A stretch of 54,873 nt of DNA, counting the filler, from Catajapyx aquilonaris (lineage: Eukaryota): NCBI GenBank assembly GCA_000934665.2. It is 2 parts of 2 records of this genome, joined end to end, with 100 filler letters (N's around TTAATTAATTAA, not from the genome) between each part and the next. Parts side by side here need not be neighbours in the genome. Positions count along the whole stretch, not along the records: positions 27,507 to 54,873 come from JYFJ02005065.1; 1 more part is not named here. One strand, given 5' to 3'. Each line of letters starts with the position of its first letter. Positions within the stretch are counted from its first letter, which is position 1. The translations under genes and the position numbers were made by a program. The notes under the pieces were generated by a model. That model was not told the DNA's origin. It saw nothing but the letters and a program-made list of their open reading frames with translations, and ran no database searches. Shown here piece after piece: positions 4,741 through 37,758 of this stretch.

Positions 4741-6537
4741 TTATTCTGGATTGCATTTTGCATATTTTTTTGCATAATATATAACTTCACCAATGAACAA
4801 GAACATACCACAACCCCAACAACAGGTGGCAAGAAAAATCATCACACCTCTTAGTTGTTCGAACTTCAAAGCCATTGAGTGCTGGTAAGATCTATCCAAC
4901 TTCCTCGCTTCCTTGATTCCTATCAGATGGCATGTATACTCCAAGTACGTGTCATAATAAGCCATAAGTCCTGAAACGATGTAATGATATGCCATTCTAT
5001 CAAGAATTGGACCCAATTTGCTGTGTTTATCCAAAATGAATCCAACTAACACCAATATACTAGCTTCTTTTGCGATGGTCAATGGCATATTTCCTGCCCT
5101 GTCCACAAATTGCGTCGTCATTGCAACCAGTATGTCCGCTGGAGCTATGCAGGCGTAATTCTCGCCTATTGATTTGCGTAAACATGAGGTGAAGTCGCGT
5201 TGATCAATCATGTCTCTTGCAATAGGTTTAAAGTATTCCAAATCATTGTCGGAGAAAACACCTGCTATGTAAGGCTTAAACGATGTAATACTTCCCCACT
5301 GCCATTGTTTACGCCTGTTATTGAGTTCCTGATACGAGGTGGGCAAATCCTCCTGCAGTGGAGATGCCAAGAATCCGAAGTACAAGGCTTCGTACCCGAT
5401 GATGATGACCAGGGAATAGATCCACCAGAAGGAGATGAAGAGTCTGGAGGGGTCACCTCGGGGGATGGTGTTGGGGTTTTCCTCGATCAGGGTGGAAAAC
5501 AGGTATCTGGCCGAGTAGAGGAACAGGGAATAGGACGGACCCTTGTCTGGAAAAGGGTTGCGGAAAGTGCTCTCTATTCTTAGAAGGGCGAAAAGGACAA
5601 AGCTGCCTGCCAAAGTGGCCAAGAATATCATAACCCACATATCTGGAGTGTAAGGCATCAAGACAGAATTCCACGAGTAACTTGGTCTTGAGGTTCTGGT
5701 GGTAAACGTCACCTGCGTATAGTAGACAGGTAATATTACCTGCACAACAGAACTTATCAAGGTTAAGGTTGTGATGCCAATCTCCGCCCTTCGACGGATA
5801 ATGTCACCAGTTTGACCGGAGTAATTACCATCAGGCAATACAATCTCAGGAATCTCACCGTCATCAAGTTGGAACGCATAAAAACCCCAATCAAAATTTA
5901 GGATATCACTAGTTAAAAGAAGGAAATTAAAAGTTCCAAACATTGGCAAGAAATTTTCCAACGAGTACTGAAACTCTTCCTTGGACAAGTCAAGCGCGGT
6001 CGTGCCGTTAATTACCTTACCGTGAAGATTGGTAGAATAATCCGAGAACAATTCCGGTAAAATGCCGCCCCGAGTATATAGAGCAACATGCACCACTTTG
6101 GGGTTACCACGATCGCAATAATGACAGTTCGCCATCACCTTGAGCGAGCTGGAGTCCTGGTCGAACTGGATCCCGACCTGAAAGAGCATGAGTTGGGCGA
6201 TGGGATGCATCAAGACTGTGTCCAGACCTCCGTCCCTGGGCCAGAAGAGGAACCTGTCCCTTCCGGTGTCCATGAGGTGAAGAGTGGCCGCGTGGACCAC
6301 CAGAGGAGACAAGGTGTCCAGTGTCCCGAAGGCGAAGAGGAAGGTGGCGCAGGGGTCCAGTCTCCTGGCCTCCGNCAGGAGACACCCGTCCCCTCTCTCC
6401 CGATGGACGTCACTCACCAAGGATGACACCAGTTCCTCTTCCTCCGACCCAACAGATGGAGAGGACCTGACCTGGACTTGACCAGATGTGACCCAGGCCA
6501 AGACGCACAGACACACTGCAACCACTTCTCTCTCCAT
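4741..6537 (-). CDS. Divergent intronless ionotropic receptor (IR, variant iGluR), 598 aa
   Basis: Signal peptide; S1 region DGNYSGQTGDIIRRRAEIG; PYTPDMW before M1; SRLFISFWWIYSLVIIIGYEALYFGFLASP at M3; LKFEQLRGVM before M4; canonical S1 Arg not evident; one N at 6376. Confidence 0.88.
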   Translation of the reverse strand: MEREVVAVCLCVLAWVTSGQVQVRSSPSVGSEEEELVSSLVSDVHRERGDGCLLXEARRLDPCATFLFAFGTLDTLSPLVVHAATLHLMDTGRDRFLFWPRDGGLDTVLMHPIAQLMLFQVGIQFDQDSSSLKVMANCHYCDRGNPKVVHVALYTRGGILPELFSDYSTNLHGKVINGTTALDLSKEEFQYSLENFLPMFGTFNFLLLTSDILNFDWGFYAFQLDDGEIPEIVLPDGNYSGQTGDIIRRRAEIGITTLTLISSVVQVILPVYYTQVTFTTRTSRPSYSWNSVLMPYTPDMWVMIFLATLAGSFVLFALLRIESTFRNPFPDKGPSYSLFLYSARYLFSTLIEENPNTIPRGDPSRLFISFWWIYSLVIIIGYEALYFGFLASPLQEDLPTSYQELNNRRKQWQWGSITSFKPYIAGVFSDNDLEYFKPIARDMIDQRDFTSCLRKSIGENYACIAPADILVAMTTQFVDRAGNMPLTIAKEASILVLVGFILDKHSKLGPILDRMAYHYIVSGLMAYYDTYLEYTCHLIGIKEARKLDRSYQHSMALKFEQLRGVMIFLATCCWGCGMFLFIGEVIYYAKKYAKCNPE

Positions 6538-7279
6538 GGCTAGACTGATCCCCTCCTATTGATTCCCATAGTTTTTATATCAATTGCCCGAAACATTTCG
6601 CTGTCAATATATTTTGCCATCCTTGCCAATCCACATCGAACTCATTCAGAAATCTTATTTGGACAAATACACACGTTGCCTGCCCTTTCCTGTGCTCCGA
6701 AACTAATTCCCACGAACAGGGTCGTATTAAGATGCAATGTTACGGATTTTCAGGTTGCAGAATATTAAATTATGTGATGCAAGATGAGAGATTGTTATTC
6801 CCGACTATGTGTGAGTTAAAATTGCTGAGATTGACAGGATAATGATGTTTTCCTATCCGGCTTTTTCTGCCAAGAAATTGCTCACTTAACCTACATATAC
6901 GTCACATAGGATAAATCTTTCATACGTGCACTACGGAACAGTGCAGTTAAAATGTCTCCAAACTACCTCGCTTGTCACGCACTCTAGTTTGCATAACCTA
7001 GAACCCAGAAACAGGGAGTGTTTTACAGCCACTTTCTGGCCTCTTTTCTCTCCCTCCAAGTAATGTTTGTGCTTATGCACAAGGACCCACAAATGCCTTG
7101 CTTGGCAATGCGTTTAAGCCTAAGGATTATTTTTATAGTTATACACTTCGAACCTATTATGCAACAAGAACTCCGATGAACATGCAACACAGGTTTATTC
7201 CCGTGAGACAAGCATCAATAAATTCTCTCTTATATTTGTTCCTTATATGAGAGGTGAGCTGCTGGTGAAAAGGGAGACA

Positions 7280-10694: not shown

Positions 10695-12079
10695 GCGCAT
10701 CAGGTAAAAGATCATGACATGTGTGCCGTAACTGGTGTTAATGATATTCACTAAGGCACTTAATTCGTAAATAGAGATCAACTGAAGATCTAGTGTTCAT
10801 ATTTATTTCGTTACTGTTTTGCTGCTCCAAAGTAGATGCAAGGATAAATTTTCATATTCGTCCACTGAAATCACTCTTGCCGACATTCCCCCAACTATGA
10901 ATTGGCAATAATTGCCCGACTCCTTTTATATGCAAAATATATGCAATGTCTCCAAAGTCGTTTGAATATTATGAACCACTTCTTACGAAACTATTCAAAG
11001 CTAAATATTATTGTCCATGAGAGTGTGTAGCCGATGTGCTCCAATTAGGGACTCCGATGCGTAACTGTCGTATCGATGTTTGATATCCGTTGGGATAACC
11101 TAAGACGACATCATTAATATTATGCCAGTGAATAACACAGCTTCAGTTGTCACCTTGTGACTCGTTCATTACAGAGACACAGTGAAAATTTATTGTAAAT
11201 GAAGTCTAGTTGTTTCTCTGTTGCTATGGAGCACTTCTGCATTGACTTTACATCATGATCGAGCCATGTTCTCATGTACAGTACGGTATACACATTAATA
11301 ATTAATAATTAATTTGTTTAAATGTGTGTTAACACTTCTACGCGGCTGCCGTGGGCGTGTAGTCTAGTTATGTACATTGACCTCGTCGCGTCATGTCGTA
11401 GGGCGTCTTGAAGGGCGCCTGGAGACATCTTCTCAAAGGTCACTCGGACATGTACCTTCCATCCTTCTTCCTCGACATGACCAACTTTTTACACTACTTC
11501 AGAGCCTACCCATGGCTGAAGGGTCAAGCTGACCTTTTGGATTGGAGATAATATTCCCATTGTACGTAAGTTGACGTAAGTACATTCTATAATTATTTCA
11601 ACTAAATATCACATACGCAATCGACATGGCGGAAGAGATTGGAACCTTATTCATCCCTCACACTTACACAGGAAGGGCTGCAGTCACACACCTGCAGATA
11701 ATCCATATTTAAAACATCGAATAACACGTTCCTTTCGGTGCTAGATGCAAACATGCATGCTTCAATATCTGGATCTGGTATGAAGACTTCAATGCAATGA
11801 GTAATTATTATCTTCGTCCTCCATGACAGTTTCTACCATTTATTTATAACACGATCACGAAACGCTGACTGACAAGTCACGAGATATCGTATTCACACAA
11901 TAGCACTTGATGAGTAAATAGTCCCACTCCCAAGATGTAAACTATCATTTATTTTGTACCCTGGCCGCTTGGTATTAGGGTGCGGTTCTTTTGAAGGCAA
12001 CAATCGATGAGAACTTATTCTTCTGTTGGGGACAAAATAATGTATTGGCAGTGGTGCTTCAAAAAGGAGTGAGGCAACA

Positions 12080-13473
12080 ATGTTTGGCAAAAGATCTACC
12101 ACAGTTTGCGTTGAAAGTGCCAATCAGTCTGGAGACAATGGGCAATATGCCGCCTTTTGGACCGCGTTCAAACCATTGGCAATCTTGGCCACCTTTGGAG
12201 GAATCGCTCCTTGTCCTTGGCCCAGGGAAAAGCCGAGTTGGAAGTGGTACCAACGGTGGCCAACAATGGTGCACTTCACTATACTGATACTGTCTGTCAT
12301 TACATACATCTACTTCCCACCGTTGACATGGAAAGGAATCGCCAAATTCAGTGCTACACGACGGTCAAAAGTGATCATTCTTCTGATCGTAACCTGCGCT
12401 ACGCCATGGATAAGTTACATTTGGATCCAAGGATGGGTGAGAAGAGTGTGGAAGCTGCTTCATCGCTTCTCTCAGCTTGATGTCATCAGGCATAAGAAAA
12501 CCCTTCATAAGCGTTCACTGATATTAGTGGCTGTCAGCTTTCTTCTGCCTTTATTGGAAACAATTACCTTAATTATCAGGCGTTTTGCGTTTATTTGCCA
12601 GCCCTTTCGAACTAAGGAACATGGTGAATTTATTCTTCATGTGCGGCACTGCTTCTTTTGGTTGCAATTGGTTCCCATTGTGGTGGCATTTCTAGCGACT
12701 GTTGTCCGGGAACTGTTGAACGAATTAAGTGAGAAAATTATTAATATGTGCGATTCATTATTTTTGTCTTCAGCAGATGGGCCGAAATCGAATGAAATTT
12801 TTGGCGAAAATATAGAGTTGATTTCTCGTAAATATTACGAACTGTGCTTTGTAGTGGAAAACGTGGACAGCGTTTATGGAATGTGCATTTTGGCTGCTTA
12901 CTTTATGAATGCTGTGAGGGCAATAAGCTCGATTTCTGAGTTGCTGTTGGTGCCCTTCATTAGTGTGTTAGACACAGCGGCATTAATCATCAACACCGGA
13001 GCCATACTAGCATCAGTAATTGCATTTACATTAATCTTGGGGTCCATACCATCTCAGGTATGTCATCATTTTTGCGGGGGTCATCGTGCAGTTATTAATA
13101 AAAACTCATCTTTTCAGAGCACAAGGTCTCTGACTCACCTGATTAGTACAGTACAGTACAAGCCCTCTGGTCACCAATCCAAACATCAAGGCTCATGTAA
13201 GTGTTCCTGCTGCAGTGTCAATACCACCTAATTTCATATTTTCAATCAGACTGAAGCAATGGTCCAGAAGATAACAGGTCCTCCCATTGGGATTACTGCT
13301 GGGGGATACTTTTCCATCAACCGCGGCCTCTTGACCTCCGTAAGTAAGTCCATCTCCAATATTCCAGTCTCCAAGAGGGGAAATGTTGTCTCCTATAATT
13401 CACAAATTAATGAACACATTAACATGCAAATTTTCCTTTACAACATTTTTCGCTTTCATTAATCCATAGATGG
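12080..13473 (+). pseudogene. GR subfamily B pseudogene
   Basis: Exon 1 (12080-13057) open; exon 2 (13118-13196) is 79 nt instead of 69 because of an AGTAC repeat expansion; exon 3 at 13250-13339; last exon deleted after its first bases. Confidence 0.85.
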
Positions 13474-14468: not shown

Positions 14469-14718
14469 TTATAGCACTAACACGAAACAATGTATTTAGA
14501 CTGACAAGTTAGGAGAAGTATCATTATCGTTTTTCGTTAGAATAGTAATAGTGCAACAGCTTGCTATGGGTTAATAGCCACGCACTTAAGCTATAAACTA
14601 TCCAATGAACCTTGTCCGAGTGACAGGGTGCGGTTCTTGTGGAAGCAATAATCAATGAGAACTTATTCTGTTGGGGACAAATGTTGGCAGTTGTGCTTCA
14701 AAAGTGAGTGAAGCAACA

Positions 14719-16169
14719 ATGTTTGGCAGAAGATCTACCGTTGTTTGTGTTAAGTCTGGAGACAATGGCCAATATGACGCCTTTTGGACCGCGTTCAGAC
14801 CATTGGGAATCTTGGCCACCGTTGGAGGAATCGCTCCTTGTCCTTGGCCCAGGGAAAATCAGAGTTGGAAGTGGTACCAACGGTGGCCTGCAATGGTGCA
14901 CTTCACTATTCTGATCCTGTCTGTCACTACATACATCTACTTCCCACCGTTGACATGGAAAGCAATTGCCAAATTCAATGCTACACGACGGTCACAAGTG
15001 ATGATTCTTCTGATCGTAACAAGTGCTACTCCATGGATAAGTTATATTTGGATCCAAGGAAGAGTGAGGCGAGTGTGGAAGCTGCTTCATCGCTTCTATC
15101 AGCTTGATCTCAGCAGGCATGAGAAACCCCTTCACAAGCGTTCACTGATATTGGTGACTGTCAGCGTCCTTCTGCCTTTATTGGAAGTAATTAACTTAAT
15201 TATCAAAAGTTTTGCGTTTTCTAGCCCATTCGAGCTTAGGAACATTTTGAATTTATTCTTCATGTGGCACTGCTACTTTTTGTCTCATTTGATCCCCACT
15301 CAGGTGGCATTTCTGACGATTGTTGTCTGGGAATTGTTGCACGAGTTAAGTGAGAAAATTATTAATACGTGCGATTCATTATTTTTGTCCTCATCAGGAG
15401 AGAGGCAGAAAGCGAATGAAATTTTTGGCGAAAATATAGAGTTGCTTTTTCGTAAATATTACGAACTGTGCTTCGTAGTGGAAAACATGGACAGCGTTTA
15501 TGGAATGTGCATTTTGCCTCATTACTTTATGAATGCAGTGCGGGTAATATGCTCGATTTCTGAGTTGCTGTTGGTGCCATTTGTTAGTGTGTTGGACACA
15601 GCTGCATTAATTACCATCACCGGAGCCACACTGATATCAATAATTGCATTTACTTTGATCCTGGGATCCATACCATCGCAAGTATGTCATCATTTTGGCG
15701 CAGGTCATAGTGCAGTTATTAATAATTCATATTTTCAGAGCACACGGTCTCTGACTCATTTGTTAAGTGCAACCCCTCTGGTCACTAATCCAAACATCAA
15801 GGCGTATGTAAGTGTTCCCTTTGCTTTGCTAATGTCAATACCAACTAATTTCATATTTTCTATCAGACTGAAGCACTGGTCCAGAAGATGACAGGTCCTC
15901 CCATAGGGCTTACTGCCGGTGGATACTTTTCCATCAACCGCGGCCTCTTGACCTCAGTAAGTTGTCAATATATCTTCAATATTCTAGTACTGTGTTGTAC
16001 CCGAGATGAGAAAAGTTACAGCATGAATGATTGACAAATCAATGATACATACAATGACATGCCAATAATCCTTTAACACTTTTCTCTGTCATTTTCTCCA
16101 TAGATGGCAGGATTTGCGACTACGTGCCTCATTGTTCTGGCTCAATTCAAGGCCTCTGAAGAACCATAA
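14719..16169 (+). CDS. Gustatory receptor, subfamily B, intact (~395 aa); exons 14719-15681, 15739-15807, 15867-15956, 16104-16169
   Basis: Open multi-TM exon 1; three phase-0 introns at the same positions as in the GR at 960; LTAGGYFSINRGLLTS; ends TTCLIVLAQFKASEEP*. Confidence 0.88.
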
Positions 16170-19656: not shown

Positions 19657-21343
19657 TTAAAGACGTATCCACGTCAAAAGAGGATTGTAATGTATTATGG
19701 CAATTATGGGCTGCCTAAGCACATTTCCAAGCTTGTATAACTTGCCTTTTTATGACTTGCAATGAAACACAGATTTTGAACGAATCAGTAACACGCAGTG
19801 TACTGCAGCTTTAGCACTTGATCCTTTCTTCCTGCCATAAGAGGAAACAAACTCCCCCGAGAGACATATCGCCATATGCCAGTAGGTAGCATAACAGATA
19901 AACCGAATTGCATTATAACTAATGGACTGTGACATACGGTAGGCCAACATTTAAAATGTTATTGTTGCCTTCACTTCTTCTCGTACATTTTTAATGCCAT
20001 CATTAAGCCTATAAGGTCATAAAAGTACATAAACAACATAGTGTTGCAACTACATTCGAGTAGGGGATATACTTTGATATAGATGAGAATCAAGTGTCTG
20101 TAATTTAACAAATTTTTAAATTTTTAAAATGAGAAAAATCTACCGTACATTTTTGTTTTGAATTTCTCCAATTTGGCTACCAAAATATTATTTATTTGAT
20201 GAAAATTATTTCAATGTGATATTATTAATATAATTTTAAGATATTCACAAGTTACAGGGGACTTGAAACCTTTGAAATACCTATACTTGTTTGATGTACA
20301 GTACCTTGACTGTCACTCCCATTGACAGTTCACGTATGGCAAAACATCTTATTTTCAAAATTAGCTGAAACCAAGGCTGAAACATGTCAAGCAGTTTCAA
20401 CAAGCCAAGAAGCAAGACACTTCCATGCAAGAACCATCTCACATTCCACAATCTATATAAAGTTTGTCAAGAAACAAATACCTGTGCGAAGGTACAGTAA
20501 ATGATGCTGACCCCCATAATTTTCAAAGGTCTATCAACTATGATGTTACTTTATTTTGTAACTTCTATATGTGGATAGTGTTTTGCAACATAATATTATC
20601 AAAGCTCTTCTGCAACTTGCGCTGATTATGTAAGTGCCATCTTGTATTCTAAGTAGCATTTGCAGCACAAATTAGTAATTCGCTGATTTATTATTCTTGA
20701 CTTGATTCTTGATTTGAAGCCATCAGTGGCATATATAATACAAATTGTCACCAAACAAATAATTAATCAAACACGGCTGCAACCCAGACAGAATGACGAT
20801 GACTAATAATAATTATCTGCTGGCCGAATTTACCTCCATGACAGTTTCTATACCATTTATTTATAACACGATCACGAAACGCTGCATTAAGACTGACAAG
20901 TCACGAGATATCGTATTCACACAATAGCTCTTGATGAGTAAATAGTCCCACTCCCAAGCTGTAAACAACCATTTGTACCCTGGCCGCTTGGTAGGGTGCG
21001 GTTCTTTTGAAGGCAACAATCGATGAGAACTTATGCTTCTGTTGGGGACAAATGTATTGGCAGTGGTGCTGCAAAAAGGAGTGAGGCAACAATGTTTGGC
21101 AAAAGATCTACCACAGTTTGCGTTGAAAGTGCCAATCAGTCTGGAGACAATGAGCAATATGCAGCCTTTTGGACCGCGTTCAGACCATTGGCAATCTTGG
21201 CCACCTTTGGAGGAATCGCTCCTTGTCCTTGGCCCAGGGAAAAGCAGAGTTGGAAGTGGTACCAACGGTGGCCAACAATGGTGCACTTCACTATTCTGAT
21301 CCTGTCTGTGATCACATATATGTACTGTACATAATTATGTACT

Positions 21344-22409: not shown

Positions 22410-23174
22410 TAAATAATTATTGTGCCTTTGCATCATTAATATGTTGTTGACGCGTTGCATGGCTTCGTGCAATTGGCAGTAGGCTTACTATTTTCCACAC
22501 ATACTGTATGCCATCGAAAAAGGATACCTTCCAGCATAGTTTGATTTCTTTTGCGCTGCATCAGTGGAAGTTGTTGAATGTGAAGTAAAATCATGCTAAG
22601 AGTGCAAATAACAACATTTATTGGTAAACAAAAAAATGGTGATTCAACCTCGGGTATACAATAGAGAGGAGAGGTAAATGGACAGCCGGGTAAGGGGAAA
22701 TTAACATCAATCACACCTTGTTGTGGGAAACCAATTCATCCAAAATAAATGGTGCTCAACAACCCTTATTTTTCGCTTCAAGCTGTCAACCAGCCATTGT
22801 GACAGTGTTCTGCTTCATTGCCATTTGCATCATTGCATCTTGTTCATGTGCAAGCATGAGAGTAAGTAATATTATCTTCGTGCTGAAGTTTCATCCGTGA
22901 CAGTTTCTAGCATTTATTTATAACACGACAACGAAACAATGTATTAAGACTGACAAGTTACCAGAAGTATCATTATCGTTTTCCGTTATAATGGCAATAA
23001 TGCAACAGCTTGCGATGGGTAAATAGCCACGCTCTTAAGCTATAAACATACTATCCAATGAACCTGGCCCGCGTGACAGGGTGCGGTTCTTGCGGAAGCA
23101 ACAATCGATGAGAACTTATTCTTCCGACGGGGACATATGTTGGCAGTTGTGCTTCAAAAGGGTGTGAGGCAACA

Positions 23175-24667
23175 ATGTTTGGCAAAAGATCAACCGTCGT
23201 TTGCGTTATGTCTGGAGACAATGAGCAATATGCAGCCTTTTGGACCGCGTTCAGACCATTGACAATCCTGGCCACCTTTGGAGGAATCGCTCCTTGTCCT
23301 TGGCCCAGGGAAAAGCAGAGTTGGAAGTGGTACCAACGGTGGCCAGCAATTGTGCATTTCACTATTCTGATCCTGTCTGTTATTACATACATCTACTTCC
23401 CACCGTTGACATGGAAAGGAGTTGCCAAATTCAGTGCAACACGATGGTCAAAAGTGACCATTCTTCTGATCGTAACAAGTGCTACTCCATGGATAAGTTA
23501 CATTTGGATCCAAGGAAGAGTGAGGAGAGTGTGGAAGCTGCTTCATCGCTTCTCTCAGCTTGATCTCACCAGGCATAAGAAACCCCTTCACAAGCGTTCA
23601 CTGATATTGGTGACTGTCAGCGTCCTTCTGCCTTTATTGGAAGTAATTAACTTAATAATCAAAAGTTTTGCGCTTTCCAGCCCATTCGAGCTTAGGAACA
23701 TTTTGAATTTATTCTTCATGTGGCACTGCTACTTTTTGTCTCATTTGATCCCCACTCAGGTGGCATTTCTGGCGATCGTTGTCTGGGAATTGTTGCACGA
23801 GTTAAGTGAGAAAATGATTAACACGTGCGATTCATTATTTTTGTCCTCGTCAGGAGAGAGACAGAAAGCGAACGAAATTTTTGGCGGAAATATAGAGTTG
23901 CTTTTTCGTAAATATTACGAACTATATGCTTCGTAGTGGAAAACACGGACAGCGTTTATGGAATGTGCATTTTGGCTGCTTACTTTATGAATGCAGTGCG
24001 GGCAATATGCTCGATTTCTGAGTTGCTCTTGGTGCCCTTTGTTAGTGTGTTGGAGACAGCGGCATTAATTACCATCACCGGAGCCACACTGATATCAATA
24101 ATTGCATTTACTTTGATCCTGGGATCCATACCATCGCAAGTATGTCATCATTTTTGCGCGGGTCATGGCGCAGTTATTAATCATTCATATTTTCAGAGCA
24201 CACAGTCTCTGACTCATTTGTTAAGTGCAAGTCCTCTGGTCACCAATCCAAACATCAAGCCGTATGTAAGTGTTCCCTCTGCTTTGCTAATATCAATACT
24301 AACTAATTTCATCATTTTCAATCAGACTGAAGCACTGGTCAAGAAGATGACAGGTCCTCCCCTTGGGATTACTGCCGGGGGTTACTTTTCCATCAACCAC
24401 GGCCTCTTGACCTCGGTAAGTTGTCAATATATCTTCAATATTCTAGTATAAGGTACCCTTGTACCCGAGAGGATAAAAGTTACCGCTTGAATCAAATATT
24501 CACAAATCAATGAATACATTCAATGACACATGCCAATTTTCCTTTAACACTTTTCTCCATAGATGGCCGGATTTGCGACTACGTGCCTCATTGTCCTGGC
24601 TCAGTTCAAGGGGTCTCTAATTACCATGATGTTGCTGGTGGAGTTTATTGGCAGAGTCGAGGATTGA
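23175..24667 (+). pseudogene. GR subfamily B, full length but with one 2-nt frameshift; exons 23175-24139, 24197-24265, 24326-24415, 24563-24667
   Basis: TACGAACTATATGCTTC at about 23916 versus TACGAACTGTGCTTC in the intact paralog; all splice sites intact; last exon runs past the paralog's stop. Confidence 0.8.
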
Positions 24668-27732: not shown

Positions 27733-30700
27733 TGCAAGCTGTGAAGTGGACGGAAGACGTACATGCTCCTTGCAGCTGTCAGGAAATCTCAGCATCAGTG
27801 TGCAAGGAGGGTCTAAAAAGCAAAAGTAGTTGTAATTATGCATAACCCGATGGATGATGAACTTTTCCCCAATGGTGAATGTTCGATGCTAATAACGCAA
27901 TGAAGAATTTGGCATATTTTTGATCAACTAAGGTACGACTTATAAATACTGCATTACATTTCCTGAAAATATCTCCTGGACGTGAATCCCTAAGCAACAG
28001 ACCTGATTCACTTCCTAGGTAATCCATCCACGAGCCGGCCACCTTTGGTTCAAGCTTGGGATCGTCCTGAGGCAATGTCTCTTTCTCTTCTGCAACTCGG
28101 GCTCTCTTACGCTTGAACCATTCCTCCCCGTCTTTCGACTCCTCCTTCCCCCTATCCTCTTCCCCCTCGGATTCAAATGTCTCTAGATCACTCCCGTCCT
28201 GCTCTGACACTGCTCCTGAATCAGTTCCTTTCCCCTTCAGCGATTCCCTGATGGCTGCCTCAAGCTGAGAATCCTCAGACGCATCCAATATTGATTCAGC
28301 TGTTGCCCCGACTGCCGCACTGCTAGGCCTCTGTGGTCTGGCTGGTGACCTGATTCCATCCATTGAAGGGTGCTCGGAGAGAAACTCAGTGGCTAGGTCA
28401 CAGAAAGACACGGCGTCCAGGCGATGCCACACACGGAGAGATTCTCCAGTCTGAGGGTCAAGGATGGCTACATATGGCCACTGTGTCACCTTGTAAAATG
28501 CCATGTACCGCTGTCCATCACTGCTGTCCATGTAAACCTGTAAGTTGACATTCCAATGTAGTGACAATACACCTCAAAAAGCCCCATTTACATGGAGCTA
28601 TGTGATCAGCAATGTTGCAGCGATGAGACCAATTGTTGGGGGGAAAGATATACGTATTGCTACCATGCGACCTTCGCTCAGTGACGTATATAGTTGCACA
28701 TCGCTGATCAAATCACTTGCATGTAAACACGGCTTAATGCCTCATAGGCTATGGCATGTGGCATTTCAACAAAAGACAACTCACCTGCCAGAAAATAAAG
28801 TGCTCCTGGACAATGTTCTTGACGGAGGTGTTGGACCAAACATCCCGGTTGAGCACCTGACAGGCAAATTCCTGGACGTTCTGTACATTTACTAGTAACC
28901 ACTTCTTCAATGACACACCCTTGTCACGAGCCTGTAACAATAAACATGTTTTTATAAGCATAATTCTCTCAAAATTACATCGACTTTAGAAATTCTGGCC
29001 AGTGGCACCGCAATGCAACAGGATGTATGTTTTCTAAGTGTTAGAATTGCCATCCACTCTTCTAATGAGGTATTGAACTTTCGTCAGAGCCCATGGAAAA
29101 ATAATCACCAAACTACTAGGGTCTCCAGTAAATACTTATTTCTTTACCTTTAAAATATGAGCACCCTCTGATAATGCCATTGGAGAATCAGTATTTTTTC
29201 AGTGCTCTGAATGGTGGTAAGTTGCTCTATGCATTATCCATTTGAAGTCCTATAGTCATAAACAGAAAATCCAAATACTTCTTGCACTCACACTCTGAAA
29301 GGACCCTCTAAAGATCATGTCCAGTGGCGGTCGAAACAAATCTTCTAGAGTCTTTCGCTTCCGTGAAGGAACAGAAGATGAAGCTCCATCAACCACACCT
29401 AACAATTCCTCCTGTCGTCCTGAAGAAAACAAATTTGTTAAAATTTTGTTCCAGAACAAAACTGTTGATTACACATACTGGTTTCAACTTGGAAATCCCT
29501 GAAGCCATCGAATACAGATCGAACAGTTCTTCTCTTCCCCCTGAAGCCATAAGCAAATATTTCCTGTCCTGGGCCAACTAACACTTCTTGCACTGGTGGG
29601 ATAGGAGCCCTCACCGTTTCTTCACCATCAGGCTCAGCATTAACTGCTGCTGAGGAAGCGGACGGAGCTGCTGAAGAATTGTTGGAGGCAACCGAGGAAT
29701 GCTTCTGATGTCCACCACCTAACTCGGATTCAGTGGATTCAATATGCATATTGATTGCCATCTCCAGGTTATCATTGCAGGCTTCCAGTAGTGACAGTGC
29801 CACCGTTGAGTCTGCCCCTGTGGAATAAGCAATTTGTTGAAATTTGAAATATTTTCATAAACTCTGTGCACAAAAACATCGAAGATTAGGGACGGAGTGC
29901 AGAAAATTAGGGAAAGGCAATAAAGCTGGAAAGTTGACAGTTATTATGCAGAATAATAACGTCAAGATTATGAGACACAGAAAAAATTGTAATGTGTGTG
30001 CAAAATTACACAGGACTCATTAGTTTCACCAGCCTTTTGCCAGCTCTTACCAACATCCCAGTATTTTTGGTTAAGGTCTGTCTGGTGGCGAGCACCAAGC
30101 CAAAGTAACATGATGCATGCATTAGCCTAGTCTATCTCATGTAGCAGAATTTTTCAAGCTACAAGCTGAATGTGACACCGTTCCACTAATTGGACATTCT
30201 GGACATGTGAACATCAGATTGAAAACTTCTTGCCCGTCACTCCCGCTGATCAACTGCATCCTCAACCAGGGGTTCATCCCAGAAACGCAAGAGCATCTCA
30301 ACAGGCAAACTACCCAGGAGGAAAACTCAGCAGCAGCGAGTCAAAATGATCAGTTGCTCATCATTCGCTCCACATGTCCACTCAGTCCAACTAGTAAAGC
30401 CTTGCAACTTGCGGTACGTCTCTTGCACTAGTGCGATCCGTAGTAATGTGATTTCAGCCTTTAATTGACTGGCCTAGCAGGTACTGTGTTATGCTGTGCC
30501 AGCGCATTCTGCATAGCATTGTTATTCTTACAGTAATTAACCACAATCAACACCGCCCCTTACTAGCCAAAATCAGAGGAATTAGAATGGCATCAATCAG
30601 CATGATGATTACGCTATTATCTGCCTCTTTACAATGCCCATCTCCCGAACTCCTTTTCGAATCCCTTCCCCACACATTCAAGACGCGGCCAGCCCCATTT

Positions 30701-30784: not shown

Positions 30785-31037
30785 TTTGGACTCGATCGAA
30801 AGAAAAGAAGAAGCTCAAACCGACCATTTGCGCTGTGGCTATGCGCAATTGTAATCCCATCTACCAATAGGAACGTGCGCTCCCATCATTGTAACCAATC
30901 ACAGCTGAACATCGAATTAGGTGCTGAGTCGTGTAAACTGATGCGAACAGACGAGCATCGCGACCCGTACTGTGGACATCACTTTTTCTCTTTTTCTCGT
31001 GGTACTTGTCCCTGCTTGTCCTGAAAATTAGTGGACA

Positions 31038-32074
31038 ATGCCGTTTATGAAAGGTGCGGCGCCGATACGGCGGACTCTGCAGTATCTAGAAGCGGGAAGG
31101 GTGTACCTCAAGGACAAGGTGCGCATATTCTCAGTCAACTACAACATCTACGGAGACCACCACGAGGGAGCCAGGTGATTACTAATGCCTTAATATTAAA
31201 TTAAAACTATTACACTCATTAAATTTTAATGAGCTGTTTTTTTTCCACAGAGAATTCGTGTTTTGGCATCTCCCGCAGCTGCAGTATAAGAACCCTGACG
31301 TGCAGGTCATTACTTTGAAGAATATGACTCCATCGCCTTTCATCCGGTGCTTTCTCAGTAAGCAACTGACACAGTCCTGTACTCTGAAAAAAAAAATCCC
31401 AAAAACCTCAGACATTTCCATTGAACCTAATCAGCTATCGCTTGAATGCATGAGGTTTATTAGACAATCACAGGCCACATGTTAGCATTGCATGAAGCCG
31501 CTTTTACATGGAGCGATGTGCAGTGATGAGTATCGCTGATCAATAAAACCAATTGTGTGGGGCTAAAGTAACAATCGAATTTTGGATGCCGACAATTGGT
31601 TTCATCGCTGATCAAATCAGTCGCATGTAAACGCGGTCTGATTAAAGGAAATAGAAGGATATCACATTGGCCATTTAATAGATTAGAATGGATTAGTAGT
31701 GCATACAACAATATTTACAACATGCAATTTCCTTGCAGATGACGGTCAGCAAGTTCTAGTTGACATTGACAGCAAGAGCAAAGAAGAGATACTGGAGCAT
31801 GTTCGGAAAATTCTTGGAAAACCAGAGTAAGAATTTGTACCATAATTTACACTGTTCATTTTGTGTGATTTTTTCTTTTTTTTTCCACAGTTCAGTTCTT
31901 GAGGCTGAAATAAAGGCACATCAAGAGCTGTCGAATCCGGCCCATTTTGGTGAGAAGTGCCTCAGGCACTGCATCTGCGAGATACCAGGGCAGATCCCAT
32001 GTCCATCAATTGTTCCATTGCCCTATCACATGAGGGGGAAGTACAAATATGGACAAGCAGAACTTGAATTGTAA
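31038..32074 (+). CDS. mRpS25: Mitochondrial ribosomal protein S25 (~171 aa); exons 31038-31174, 31251-31357, 31739-31826, 31891-32074
   Basis: [17 protein letters not shown]...[22 protein letters not shown]...[11 protein letters not shown]...NPAHFG...[12 protein letters not shown]; exon phases consistent. Confidence 0.95.
31496..31638. mobile_element. Degenerate Harbinger-like MITE
   Basis: AGCCGCTTTTACATG...CATGTAAACGCGGTC flanked by TGA on both sides. Confidence 0.6.
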
Positions 32075-32109: not shown

Positions 32110-34505
32110 TCAAAAGTCAGTCACCCAGCAATCTCTCCCTGAGCAACCCTTCAGTCTTTTCAGAAGAGACTTGTAGTGTCTGTGAGTCTTTTCATTGAGA
32201 GCTGGTGCAATGTTGGTCAACTGGTAAGGGTCAGATGTTATGTTATAGGCTTCCTGGAATCCTTCAGAGTCTTCAAACTGGCAGAAGAGGAAGTTGGCCT
32301 GTGGGCTGATTTGTCGCACACAGTCATAGGTGTTGTTGGTCGAGTCCTGGCACTTGCAAGATGCTGCTTCCTGGCACAACTGAACAAGAAAAGAAATTGT
32401 TAGCGCTTTCCAACCTATATTTATGTTCAACTGTGACTAACTGTGACGTCTGTTCCTCTCCATGGGCACTCTGGATCCGTCTTCCCTCCACCTTCCCCCC
32501 TGTACTCCACTAAGAAGGCAGTCCTCCACTCCTGCGACTCTCCTTTGGCAATCTCGAAGAATGACATGCCATCAGTATTGGCAGCTCTTTTCCCAGCCAT
32601 CTCAAGCAGGGTTGGGAATAAGTCAATGAGCAGCACCATCTCCGACCTTTTCACACCCTTTGGTATTCCTGGACCCTGAACCAACAATGGAACACGCAAA
32701 TCTGTGTCGTAGGGCTGGCGCTTGTCCCAGGGCATTGAGTTCTGACCCAGGTGATAGCCATGATCAGATGTGAAGACAACGTAGGTGGAAACCATGCTGA
32801 TGACTTGCATGATGTTACGCACCATATGATCCACAGACAATAACGTGCGCCATCGATTACGATGTACTTCATCAACAACATCAACAGTGACATTGGGCAA
32901 TGGTGATGGTGGAAGTCGCAATAACCAATGTTTGTCGGTCCCTGGGATGGCATCAAACCCATATGTTCGAGGAGCTTTAATTTCTTCATACCTGTGTTCG
33001 TATTGTGGTGCAGGTGTGAAGGGTGCATGTGGCGCTGGTACAGCCAATATCATAAAGAACGGAGCACCATTGAGGTTTTGTTGCTGTATAAACTGCAGGG
33101 CTGACCTTGCTATTACATCTGTTAAGTAGTCAGTTGCATAGCTATCACCATGACGGCGTGCAGTACCATTGATGGACAAGGTGTAGTTGTAGTAGCGTGA
33201 GTTCCCAGTCAACCCCATCCACCAGTCCCACCCTGCCGGTACATGTTTGGTGCCTCCAGCATGTTTCTTCCCATACTGTAAAATAGAGCCATGTCCAAAA
33301 GGTTGTATTTAAAAACACTAAAACACATCATCAGACACAACTTGCAGCAATCCTGTAATGAACTGCAATTTCCCTGGATATGTTTACAGGGAAAAGACGC
33401 ACCTGATTCATGTATTTCCCTGCGTAGAATGTAGTGTAGTTTAAGGCCTTAAGATGCACAGCCAGCGTTTCCATCTCCAGTCCCTGCTGCCACTCATGGC
33501 TGCTGCAGTTTCCTTCCAATGTGTTGTTGACCACTCCGGTATTGTGGAGGTGGCGACCAGTCAGGATTGATGCACGGCTCGGACAACAGATTGGGGTTGT
33601 TGCAAACTGAGGATTGACAACTAATTGCCACAGAGCTAACAACCCAGAAATATTGTGATCCCTTCATGCACCATTCAATATTATTAGCATCCAGTTGACA
33701 AAGACAATGATGCAATCCAACTCACACAGTACAATAAAAATACTAGTACCAGTCAGTCTTCCCACAAGTTAGGATTCATTCAGATGGCATGCTCTATTTT
33801 TGTATTTTCAGTACTTTCCACAACATAATTTTCATAACAAATAATAACGAATAAAGGTTTAGACAAGTGTATGTCCTTCATATTCTTATTGGCGCAAGTG
33901 AGGATGCATGATTTTTTATTTTTAAATTATTTCAGATGTGGCAAACATAATTTTCACAAGTAAGTATGGTTGAAATTAATGCAATGGCATGCCAAAGAAT
34001 GGCAGCAGTGATTGGCTTCGTACACATTTGCCTACAGGATTTACAAAATGTACAATAACAGCATGTGCCATGTGGATGAGTCTTTAGTGTGAATCTGTGA
34101 CACTAGAAATAAACTCTCTTTATTACAAATGTTCAACAAGCCATCAAATTTGAGACGATTGTCAACTCACAGCATTTTCAAACGTGACACCTTGCTGACC
34201 CAATAACTGCTGGACATGCTTCAACGGCGTCTGCAATAAGAGTAAAACGGGGAGGATTGGAAATGAGTCCACCATTGTCACTGACTAATCCCAAGTTTAT
34301 TGCTGGACTTGACTTTTGCCCCATCACATTATTCTGCTGTCCTTACCATTCCCCCCAACACCAGATCCTGGTCATCACTCAGAACAAGAACGATGTTGGG
34401 TCGTGCCGGAGCTGGATCAAGACCCGCCAACTTCGGTGTCAACGGCAGGAATGGAAGAAGCGGGACCAGGACCAGCAGCAACAGGCAGCAAGGAAGTCGA
34501 TTCAT
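32110..34505 (-). CDS. GNS: N-acetylglucosamine-6-sulfatase-like (~508 aa); exons 34347-34505, 34171-34230, 33403-33606, 32442-33275, 32110-32379
   Basis: Signal peptide; RPNIVLVLSDDQD; sulfatase signature CCPSRASILTG; FYAGKYMNQYG; FTSDHGYHLGQ; DKRQPY; CKCQDSTNNTY. Confidence 0.92.
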
Positions 34506-34549
34506 GATTGCCCCCCGTTGCATAATATGCTGTGATGACAGATTGCTGA

Positions 34550-36431
34550 TTATTGACTAGGCGGTGCCATCAGGTCAACTCCTATGGCTCCTCTGGCAAT
34601 CCTCACGCCAACAACGAAGAAGACAATGCTCTTCACCATTTGCCTGCAATTAGAAAATATATTTAACAGCTTGTTGTGTATTGGGTGGCTGGTAATGGAT
34701 CTCAAGGTGATGAACAAACAAGGTGTATTGCCAGTATACAGGGTGATCAAACTTTTTTGTCGTTTTAGTTATTGACAAATTCGGCTTAAGCTGCTTATAT
34801 TGTAGCCCGTTACCTGGCAACCTCGTCCGGCGGGCCAATTCAAACATCAGCCCATGGAGAGCGCTTCCATTGTTGCCACTGTTTACAAATCGAGTGAGTG
34901 ACGCGGACGACCCAGCGACGGGTCTCTTCTGCCTGCGCACTCACTCGGAACTCGATTTGTAAACAGTGGCAACAATGGAAGCGCTCTCCATGTGCCGATG
35001 TTTGAATTGGCCCGCCGGACGGTGTTGCCAGGTAACGGGCTACAATATAAGCAGCTTAGGCCGAATTTGTCAATAACTAAAACGACAAAAAAGTTTGATC
35101 ACCCTGTATAATAAGCAGAGTCCGGATTTTCAGGCACGAAAAAACCCGAAATAGGCACAAAATAGTTACTTTTTCGGGAGTATGGAGGATAATGCTATAT
35201 CAAATAAAAAGCTAGAATAATTTTATAGGCCTAAAGTATAAATGTAATAAGGTTTCAAACCATGGCAAAAACCTAATAACAACGATAAACTGACATGAAA
35301 TCATGAAACTTGGGTAAAAGTCACAAAGTGCAAGCAAGTACGCACTTGCTCTGGACTTCACCGCTTATAGCCAGTTTCCACTTGCACAATATTTGGCATA
35401 CACGTCACGGAAACATGATTTGTAGTAATACTTCTGAATAATTTTGGTTGGTTCAGGAGCACAAAAAAACAAACTTGCCTCTGAAGGAATAGGTTCGGAA
35501 TAGGCCCAAAAAGTCCCGAAATTGCTTCAAAAAGCTCAAAAACTATCCCAAAAAAGACCACATAGGGATTAAAAGTCTCAAAAATCCAAAATAGGCAAAA
35601 TAGTTCCCAAAACCACGAAATAGGCCATCTTAGGCACTATAAAACCTACATTTTCCACATCCTGCACTTATTCACAAAACCATCCAAACTGAAAAGGAAC
35701 TAAATAGGCATTTGGCTAAAAATCTGGACTCTAAAGGCCTGTACACACAGGCCGTTGACGGTTTTGTGTTGCCCCCGTTTACATGAGTCATGATTGGTCT
35801 GCTGCGTCGACACGACCCAAGACCAAAATCGTCAACGGCCTGTGTGTATGGGCCTTAATAATAAGCGCTCGAGAACAGACCAACGACTAGGTCTGGTTCC
35901 TACATAAGAACAACAGTCACCAGTTGTCTAGCAACTGGTTACAAAGGACACAACACAGCTCATACATGACATTCCACCATATGCAGAGGGGTTATTCACT
36001 CATTGTATTCCCTGCGTATTCCACTTGTATTCTGGATATATTCCAGCATATTCCGGGTGTAATACATATACCAGTATCCCAGTGTATACGGGGAATATCA
36101 GTATCCCAGTGTATACCGTGGGAATGCCGGAATTCAGTATTCTTTGTACACAAAATGGACAAGTGATTAACCTTTTGCCATAACCCTATGATTGTGATTA
36201 ATTAACAATCTCATGATAAACCAATCTTTGGACTTGGTTGACTTTGCACCACATGAAAAGTGATTATTCCTGCATATCTCCCTTCTCGGCCCCCACAAAT
36301 GGCTGTTCATCGCATCGCCCACGCCCCGGGGCATGCCTCGAGCCTCACCATCTGAACTGGTCGTGGTAAATTCCGCGGAAAAGGGCCATGATCCCACCTC
36401 CACGCCGCTGATGGAACGTTTCGCCGGCCAT
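34550..36431 (-). CDS. TOMM6: TOM6-like mitochondrial import receptor micro-protein (58 aa, or 44 aa from ATG 36389); exons 36349-36431 and 34550-34643
   Basis: Phase-2 GT-AG join gives MAGETFHQRRGGGIMALFRGIYHDQFRWQMVKSIVFFVVGVRIARGAIGVDLMAPPSQ*, resembling the metazoan TOM6 pattern RGVY...DFRR...GLFAAGVWLARNLSDIDLMAP recalled from memory. Confidence 0.72.
34739..35106. mobile_element. Tc1/mariner-type foldback MITE, about 155-bp TIRs
   Basis: TA-CAGGGTGATCAAAC...GTTTGATCACCCTG-TA; near-perfect arms. Confidence 0.9.
35116..35857. mobile_element. hAT-type non-autonomous element (its right end is interrupted by a Harbinger MITE)
   Basis: TIR CAGAGTCCGGATTTT / AAAATCTGGACTCTA; 8-bp TSD ATAATAAG at 35108-35115 and 35858-35865; internal AAATAGGC repeats; second partial copy at 51308-51556. 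Confidence 0.8.
35735..35855. mobile_element. PIF/Harbinger MITE
   Basis: AGGCCTGTACACACAGGCCGTTGACG...CGTCAACGGCCTGTGTGTATGGGCCT with TAA TSD. Confidence 0.85.
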
Positions 36432-36460
36432 CTTTGCTGGGATTGGAAAAATACGGTAGC

Positions 36461-36473
36461 GTGACGTCACTGG
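36461..36473. promoter_or_regulatory. CRE/ATF-like palindrome upstream of the TOM6-like gene
   Basis: GTGACGTCACTGG 30 nt upstream of the ATG; identical 13-mer at 52941. Confidence 0.45.
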
Positions 36474-37758
36474 CTTTATCAGCAACACTAGCGCTTACCT
36501 AGCGGACGATTAGAGAATCTCTGGTCACCGTATTCGAGTCGACCTTGGATGGCATTTAGAATCAGCGTTAATTTCTTTACCACCATTTACACCATTTAAG
36601 TTAGTGTCACACTACAAGTTGTACAGGTCGTACTTACTCTCTCACTATCCAGGACATACTGAAAGAAACAATAGCATAAAAGTGTTCAAAAGATTACCAT
36701 ATTATCAGGTATGCAGATACAGGAATAAAATAAAGTGAGATAACACTGCAATATCTAATTTATTAACAATGCACAATTATGGCTTGTCCCCAAGTAGATT
36801 TTGCCCCACTATTTGGCATTAAATCTGAACCTAGCTACCCTTTACTTTGCCATGGCGTAACAAGGGTTGGTCAAGGAACAATGTTTATGGGGGTGAGAGA
36901 GGGCAGTTAAGACAGGGAAAAAACAACAACAAACAACAACAACAACAACAATAAACACCCTTCAGAAGATTTGTACTGTGCAAAAAGTCAGCTCAGAGAG
37001 GATGCCACTGAAATCATTTCACACATAGGGAATGTTTGTTTTATGGATCATGTTTGTTTCGAGATATATCTGGTAACAGACTGGAAGTATGTTACAATAC
37101 AATAGTCTCGCACTTGACCTGATTCCTTTTGAAACTGGGAATGGAGATACGGTTGAGGTAACAGAGTTTCATTAGAGATTCATAGTTTCAAAAATCCACC
37201 TGCCTTTCATTATTCCCGCAATGATGCCACATAACTACGTAATGAGGCAGAATAGTCTTTCTCTTACAAGATTGCAAGTGCAAGATTACATGGTATTGTT
37301 ACACAATTCAGTAACAGGGGAGCTATATTTTTTACACATTTTTCACTCTAACAGGAATGCATTTTATGCAGCTATTGAAGTAGATATGCTTCATGACTTC
37401 ACAGCAAACTGGTAGCATTTTCTGTCCCACTTTTAGTTTATTTTACAACATATCTGAACTACTTACCCCCAAAAAGAGGAAGACCCATATCGTCAAAGGC
37501 ACAAGCTGTAACTTTGGTATTGTGAGCAATATAAAGTTCCAGTATCAGCTGGGAAGGGGGGGAGTTGCAAGTATTTCAAGGTGCAGTGACATGTATACAA
37601 CAGTATGTGTCTGGTGACACGTAATTCCATCAGCAAACAAAGGCACATCTAAGGTGTTTTTTTTTTTCCACACATGCTCACACCCAGACATTCAAATGTT
37701 GGCATTATTCGTGAAATTTTCATGTTGTTTACAAGGAGATGACTAGACTGAGATTCCA

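Follow-up and report, generated by a model that had tools for sequence, protein, structure and literature searches.

A TOM6-like micro-gene directly upstream of the GNS sulfatase gene in Catajapyx aquilonaris: RNA continuity between two unrelated genes and a possible dicistronic unit

In this study, we analysed a window of 54,873 nt from the genome of Catajapyx aquilonaris (GCA_000934665.2), meaning by "window" the whole stretch of DNA under analysis, and focused on a locus at 32110-36473, within the part that comes from JYFJ02005065.1 (27,507-54,873), where two unrelated genes follow each other on the minus strand. The upstream one is a two-exon micro-gene for a peptide of 58 amino acids (aa), very probably an orthologue of TOM6 on the sequence comparisons given below and called TOM6 here; the downstream one is GNS, the gene for N-acetylglucosamine-6-sulfatase. 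Contigs from a single public sequencing run, X1, supply all of the RNA evidence. The library type of this run is off record, and we treated it as cDNA-like because its contigs are spliced: it behaves as cDNA, with canonical spliced junctions in three genes of the window. The contigs are de Bruijn assemblies built from 31-letter words, in which overlapping transcripts may merge, and a single molecule is therefore not provable from them. The features of the locus, all TOM6 and GNS coordinates being on the minus strand, are as follows.

36432-36600, minus strand: promoter-like region, with the palindrome TGACGTCA, of cyclic AMP response element (CRE) type, at 36469-36462
36431-36349, minus strand: coding part of TOM6 exon 1, 83 nt (27 codons plus 2 nt), with the ATG at 36431 and the donor GTGAGG at 36348
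36348-34644, minus strand: TOM6 intron, 1705 nt, GT..AG, largely repeat-derived and skipped by an X1 contig
34643-34550, minus strand: TOM6 exon 2, 94 nt (30 codons plus TAA at 34552-34550), with the acceptor ttgcag
34549-34506, minus strand: intercistronic spacer, exactly 44 nt, covered by an X1 contig without any difference
34505-34347, minus strand: GNS exon 1, 53 codons, signal-peptide-like N-terminus and start of the sulfatase domain, covered by an X1 contig
34346-34231, minus strand: GNS intron 1, 116 nt, GTAAGG..TTGCAG, containing AATAAA at 34301-34296
34230-34171, minus strand: GNS exon 2, 60 nt (20 codons), required for an open frame and for alignment with homologues
33606-33403, minus strand: GNS exon 3, with the CCPSR formylglycine motif; the enclosing open reading frame (ORF) matches Pfam Sulfatase at E 1.4e-10
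33275-32442, minus strand: GNS exon 4, main sulfatase domain (Sulfatase, E 1.8e-27), with contigs over 32442-33214
32379-32110, minus strand: GNS exon 5, with the stop codon at 32112-32110

Judged by its protein sequence, the downstream gene is a clear orthologue of GNS, a type I sulfatase. Our model comprises five exons and 508 aa, with all four introns of GT-AG type, and the intron at 32380-32441 is spliced out in a second X1 contig (CT..AC), which runs on into a convergent plus-strand gene. A preliminary description of this stretch had given an incomplete GNS model, from which the 60-nt exon at 34230-34171 was absent; once this exon is included, GNS intron 1 is only 116 nt long. Besides the two Sulfatase matches, the pieces of the GNS ORF match SGSH_C (E 1.8e-11) in Pfam, and a search with the 293-aa exon returned 963 proteins at E<=0.001 among 1900 candidates. 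Among the 120 matches listed, most of those with a source name are GNS or GNS-like, at 47-57% identity, and the named GNS matches in that list span spiders, insects, crustaceans, molluscs and vertebrates. Residues 19-503 of the model align to a 505-aa locust GNS with 51% identity; since this alignment begins as early as residue 19, we regard GNS exon 1 as the real N-terminus. Compared with human GNS, the Sanfilippo IIID enzyme, and with its animal orthologues, the protein is collinear over its full length, with 47-57% identity across the parts compared, and shares with them the Sulfatase and SGSH_C domains, the CCPSR motif and a hydrophobic N-terminal leader.

The identity of the micro-gene rests on fainter signals. 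Pfam and Protein Data Bank (PDB) searches were made with its unspliced pieces, that is, 27 aa from exon 1 and 30 aa from exon 2. The sole Pfam match of exon 2 was TOM6p (PF15184), weak at E 0.051 and 13.8 bits against a gathering score of 27 bits, over profile positions 49-70 of 74. In the PDB, only two of 177,635 distinct sequences matched exon 2 alone at E<=10 and both are TOM6, a weak but specific result: fly Tom6 (9etm_G, E 0.02, 17.8 bits) and human TOM6 (7ck6_E, E 0.71, 13.2 bits). The TOM6 similarity that the preliminary description had noted therefore held up, TOM6 being the only family or structure matched by exon 2, through weak matches. Exon 1 alone matched no Pfam family, and its only PDB match, an unrelated galactosidase (E 0.052), carries no TOM6 signal and was discarded.

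The peptide resembles metazoan TOM6 (human TOMM6, PDB 7ck6/7cp9; fly Tom6, PDB 9etm) in several respects. Its 58 aa make it comparable in size, the fly model covering residues 7-48 (PMC11707698), and exon 2 is predicted to encode a single C-terminal transmembrane helix followed by DLMAP, which would correspond to the (D/E)LM motif that follows the helix in metazoan TOM6. The lipid contacts of fly Tom6 are Tyr15, Trp21 and Lys25 (PMC11707698), and Tyr22, Trp28 and Lys32 of the Catajapyx peptide reproduce this Tyr-6-Trp-4-Lys spacing exactly. The alignment of exon 2 with fly Tom6 places the fly LVK on the MVK of the Catajapyx peptide. The Trp28 codon is divided by the TOM6 intron, TG before it and G after it; since this residue straddles the two exons, the match in protein sequence lends the splice further support. 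On the other side, its sequence similarity to metazoan TOM6 is weak, its N-terminal 27 residues are without a detectable match, and it has no close relative in two very large protein searches: the 72-aa ORF that contains exon 2 yielded zero candidates in a word-indexed search of a very large protein set, and phmmer with exon 2 gave no match at E<=0.001 against 1.84 billion representatives, as expected for a 30-aa query. The ESM Atlas provided leads only, all below 0.9 (TOM5-like, 0.81; TOM6-type clusters, 0.76-0.77).

The two-exon structure proposed in the preliminary description is present in the sequence, where the joined exons form a single open frame of 58 codons, and the splice from 36349 to 34643 is observed in RNA: an X1 contig joins 34642/36348, with CT..AC ends and 0 mismatches. 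There is no sense-strand AATAAA in the 1705-nt TOM6 intron, where ∼1.6 would be expected. This intron holds an inverted repeat with 161-nt arms (34735-34895 and 34950-35110, 97% complementary) and a 54-nt loop, which looks like a hairpin or a repeat of the miniature inverted-repeat transposable element (MITE) type. Many X1 contigs match 34712-35881 in the intron with 90-95% likeness, indicating that the repeat family is transcribed somewhere. Among the five base differences listed, four are plus-strand A>G changes grouped at 34961-34972 in one 97-nt contig; they could stem from another copy of the repeat or from RNA editing.

The same contig that documents the splice carries the central observation of this work. 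It is 370 nt long, matches with 0 mismatches, and joins 45 nt of TOM6 exon 1 (∼36393-36349) to 34642-34318, so that it spans TOM6 from about codon 14 to the stop, the spacer, GNS codons 1-53 and 29 nt of GNS intron 1. It is unspliced at the donor of GNS exon 1 (34347/34346), though the TOM6 intron has been removed, and it ends at 34318 with no loose letters. TOM6 is thus co-transcribed with the 5' end of GNS, as supported at the level of contigs. The preliminary description had gone further and proposed, as probable, one mRNA that holds TOM6 and GNS and is translated into both; the part of this proposal that stands is the continuity of RNA from TOM6 exon 1 into GNS coding sequence, while an mRNA with both whole ORFs, and translation of GNS from it, were not shown. 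No X1 contig lies on 33308-34243 (GNS exons 2-3) or on 36394-36789, and such holes prove nothing. Contig depth, at 49.7 for the contig of TOM6 and GNS exon 1 and at 13.2 and 21 for the contigs of the GNS body, cannot rank parts of the genes and is not used as evidence.

As the preliminary description had stated, the TOM6 stop (34550) precedes the GNS ATG (34505) by 44 nt on the same strand, and the spacer is free of AATAAA; we found there none of the 14 hexamer variants scanned as poly(A) signals, ATTAAA among them. A further ATG in the GNS frame, at 34523-34521, had been missed; it lies 26 nt past the TOM6 stop and would lengthen the GNS leader by 6 residues. Beyond the TOM6 stop, a canonical poly(A) signal first occurs at 34301-34296 (AATAAA), 45 nt into GNS intron 1 and with GT-rich sequence behind it. 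By itself, this signal is weak evidence for an early 3' end.

What can be said of promoters comes from base composition and motifs. The window as a whole is CpG depleted, with an observed/expected ratio (o/e) of 0.64 for CpG and 1.04 for GpC, which suggests germline DNA methylation in this genome. In a scan of 1084 windows of 200 nt across it, the segment 36401-36600 reached a CpG o/e of 1.33 (window-wide median, 0.58; 95th percentile, 1.22) and ranked within the top 40. The promoter-like context previously placed at 36430-36500 is borne out to this extent, as the CRE palindrome and the CpG peak both fall there and neither has a counterpart upstream of GNS: over the 400 nt ahead of the GNS ATG, CpG o/e is 0.54-0.62 with no peak, and 34900-34506 holds no match to the initiator (Inr), TATA, DNA replication-related element (DRE) or CRE in a simple scan, which has little weight. 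This pattern of CpG and motifs mildly favours a single promoter, which would lie upstream of TOM6. Further upstream, a minus-strand X1 contig of 1040 nt covers 36790-37500 and beyond and ends 26 nt before an AATAAA at 36764-36759. The segment 36759-36790 (minus strand) is probably the 3' end of an upstream minus-strand gene, which would leave only ∼300 nt for the TOM6 promoter.

No ATG occurs between 36500 and the TOM6 ATG at 36431, which is also the first in the modelled RNA. The context of this start, AAAGATGGCCGGC (36425-36437, minus strand), resembles the translation initiator of short 5' UTR (TISU)/YY1-type element that marks genes whose 5' leaders are very short. The X1 contig reaches no further upstream than 36393 in TOM6 exon 1. 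If the leader is very short, initiation could occur at Met15 (36389-36387) and give a product of 44 aa, near the size of fly Tom6.

On the modelled spliced RNA, five AUGs stand ahead of the first AUG in the GNS frame, and three of the five (the TOM6 start and the in-frame Met15 and Met30) have A at -3 and G at +4; the others are an out-of-frame AUG that opens 23 codons and the in-frame Met52. With five upstream AUGs, three of them in strong context, leaky scanning to GNS is unlikely. Reinitiation past a 58-codon ORF, over a gap of 26-44 nt, should be inefficient. On a dicistronic RNA, TOM6 would necessarily be an inhibitory upstream ORF for GNS.

The reading that we favour, with a probability of roughly 0.45, is a shared unit like those known from flies, in which one promoter would give rise both to a short mRNA for TOM6 and to a longer, dicistronic mRNA for TOM6 and GNS. 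TOM6, the small 58-aa tail-anchored subunit of the mitochondrial outer-membrane translocase, and the lysosomal GNS would be transcribed from a common CRE-bearing, CpG-rich promoter just upstream of 36431. The primary transcript, spliced from 36349 to 34643 as seen in the X1 contig, would read on past the TOM6 stop and across the spacer to the end of GNS exon 1. Two outcomes may then be open to the RNA. Cleavage and polyadenylation at the AATAAA in GNS intron 1 would yield a TOM6 mRNA of ∼0.5 kb whose 3' untranslated region (UTR) includes the start of GNS, or splicing of GNS intron 1 would yield the long dicistronic mRNA, from which GNS may be made at a low rate through reinitiation. A stronger version of this model makes GNS intron 1 a switch, in which splicing would yield the dicistronic mRNA and polyadenylation at the internal AATAAA a TOM6-only mRNA; one promoter would then set TOM6 and GNS output in a regulated ratio, and the TOM6 ORF would also throttle GNS translation. 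We consider this version improbable.

Several results weigh against the shared unit. The 370-nt contig ends 17 nt short of the AATAAA at 34301-34296 and is without an A tail, so that use of this site was not observed, and at the frequency of the window's own AATAAA (101 on both strands together, taken as the chance baseline) ∼0.10 such signals would arise by chance in a stretch as long as this intron, GNS intron 1. On the first of these points, the contig of the upstream minus-strand gene likewise stops before its AATAAA, which suggests that X1 contigs tend to fade shortly before true 3' ends. GNS intron 1 is short, its donor (GTAAGG) is strong and its acceptor (TTGCAG) is rich in pyrimidines, and introns of this kind are as a rule removed before a poly(A) signal inside them can act. 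No X1 contig joins GNS exon 1 to exon 2, which means that the long isoform is unobserved; moreover, the 370-nt contig may merge overlapping transcripts and so proves no single molecule, and it comes from the one run whose library type is off record. At the level of translation, a dicistronic RNA would be a poor template for GNS, giving a low GNS rate. Lastly, term searches of the list of fly polycistronic loci (PMC4528330, File S1) found no entry for Tom6 or for a sulfatase, nor any under mitochondrial, import or lysosomal terms; Tom6 was searched by name, as the paper on the fly TOM structure gives no gene identifier for it. Our literature searches found nothing in print on a TOM6-GNS transcript or pairing. 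CG18278, presumably the fly GNS gene, had no entry by that number in the term search of File S1.

Two overlapping but independent genes would account for the 370-nt contig equally well, given that overlapping transcripts merge in assembly. Close to the alternative already raised in the preliminary description, a GNS promoter in the TOM6 intron, the GNS start site would then lie towards the 3' end of that intron or within TOM6 exon 2, the TOM6 3' UTR would end in GNS intron 1, and there would be no functional dicistronic mRNA. An unspliced GNS exon 1 donor is what one expects of a TOM6-only RNA that ends in intron 1, the strong upstream AUGs argue against a TOM6 ORF in an efficient GNS mRNA, and the 3' genes of fly dicistronic loci often have a downstream alternative promoter, according to Crosby et al. 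2015 (PMC4528330). The DNA ahead of GNS speaks against such a promoter, with neither a core-promoter motif in the simple scan of 34900-34506 nor a CpG peak (o/e 0.54-0.62), with only 44 nt of non-coding sequence before the GNS ATG, and with a TOM6 intron upstream that is mostly repeat-derived. On balance, we consider independent genes possible but rather unlikely.

If, as the preliminary description proposed, every transcript were dicistronic and carried TOM6 together with the whole GNS ORF, the 29 intronic letters of the contig would have to come from unspliced precursor. A spacer without a poly(A) signal, RNA that is unbroken across it, and a 116-nt intron with strong splice sites are all in keeping with this proposal. 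Yet the contig crosses the GNS exon 1 donor unbroken while the TOM6 intron is cleanly removed in it, and, had a spliced path from exon 1 to exon 2 been in the graph, the assembler would probably have pruned a dead end of 29 nt; TOM6 would, in addition, rely on an mRNA of ∼2 kb with a very long region past its stop. An obligate dicistronic mRNA therefore strikes us as distinctly unlikely. Far less probable still is a precursor of operon type from which two mRNAs would be released, either by spliced-leader trans-splicing onto the AG at ∼34531-34529 (tctgtcatcacag, followed by cat) or by cleavage. The spacer does offer this pyrimidine-rich AG just ahead of the first ATG in the GNS frame, and such resolution would abolish the problem of the upstream AUGs; however, neither the X1 contigs nor the loose ends listed show a joint at that AG, and the upstream gene has no poly(A) signal before it.

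Besides these two genes, the window holds several others. A gene of MRPS25 type (30959-32074, plus strand; Pfam L51_S25_CI-B8, E 1.7e-10; stop at 32072-32074) is convergent with GNS, and its stop lies 35 nt from the GNS stop (32112-32110). With only 35 nt between the convergent stops, each 3' UTR must overlap a coding exon of the other gene, and after the GNS stop there is no canonical AATAAA or ATTAAA until 31679. One X1 contig of 1536 nt merges the MRPS25-type gene and GNS, with plus-strand introns at 31172-31247, 31358-31738 and 31827-31890. Elsewhere, a family of long ORFs occurs in four plus-strand copies (12041-13228, 14659-15888, 21011-21331 and 23112-23933) that have in common an N-terminal stretch with SEATMFG. 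The one copy tested, 12041-13228, had no Pfam match; several of the CpG o/e peaks of the window lie in or beside its copies, and the family probably represents a repeated element or else a group of young genes. Two further minus-strand ORFs or genes carry, respectively, a Lig_chan ligand-gated ion channel domain (4744-6555, E 6.5e-9) and a UBA-like domain (27839-29854, E 3.4e-7).

The shared unit that we favour for TOM6 and GNS has its closest models in Drosophila. Crosby et al. 2015 (PMC4528330) describe 159 dicistronic gene pairs, 69 of them with a monocistronic transcript of one partner; the 5' genes usually gain their monocistronic form through an upstream poly(A) site, gaps are -34 to 319 nt in loci that are exclusively polycistronic, and polycistronic genes show an excess of very small proteins. 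The Catajapyx locus resembles these fly loci in that a short gap, at 44 nt inside the fly range, separates two conserved but unrelated ORFs on the same strand, in that the upstream gene, TOM6, codes for a very small protein, and in that a shorter transcript of the 5' gene with an earlier poly(A) site is likely at TOM6. Unlike in the fly loci, the early poly(A) site, here a candidate, falls within intron 1 of GNS, the downstream gene, so that the short mRNA would carry the start of the GNS ORF; the TOM6-GNS connection is, moreover, known here from a contig that spans GNS exon 1 and not from a full-length dicistronic cDNA.

A second comparison is with the Drosophila pair sloth1-sloth2, for which Bosch et al. 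2022 (PMC9681215) report a weak Kozak context at sloth1 and leaky scanning shown by reporters. As in that pair, the upstream ORF encodes a small mitochondrial membrane peptide, the gap is very short, and translation of the downstream ORF is expected to be damped. In contrast to sloth1-sloth2, TOM6 begins in a strong context (A at -3, G at +4) with four further AUGs behind it, which makes leaky scanning unlikely, and the two products are unrelated and destined for the mitochondrion and the lysosome, rather than being paralogues of one complex.

For GNS sharing a transcript with TOM6 elsewhere, there was no sign in the searches made. Metagenomes scanned with an alignment of 14 GNS sequences yielded 80 loci, which have no bearing on arthropods. 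In a phmmer search of the spliced TOM6 peptide against the 10,899 ORFs (at least 20 aa) of these 80 loci, the best E was 0.44, a match inside a GNS gene in another frame that we rejected as noise. Among the 14 of the 80 loci that were inspected, 11 contained the GNS start together with 61-1931 nt before the first in-frame ATG, and in these 11 eukaryotic loci no TOM6-like ORF was seen upstream.

If confirmed, TOM6 and GNS would join the list of animal dicistronic loci as a pair that we have not found in print. Current views would remain unchallenged, because such loci already make up ∼2.5% of fly protein-coding gene models (PMC4528330). The locus would, however, provide a compact natural case for the expression of a downstream ORF behind a well-initiated ORF of 58 codons, and its 116-nt intron with an internal AATAAA would be a simple system in which to study the competition of splicing with polyadenylation. 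On the side of gene annotation, the TOM6 gene was not found by a search of 5.8 billion predicted proteins, which suggests that gene finders may well miss this gene.

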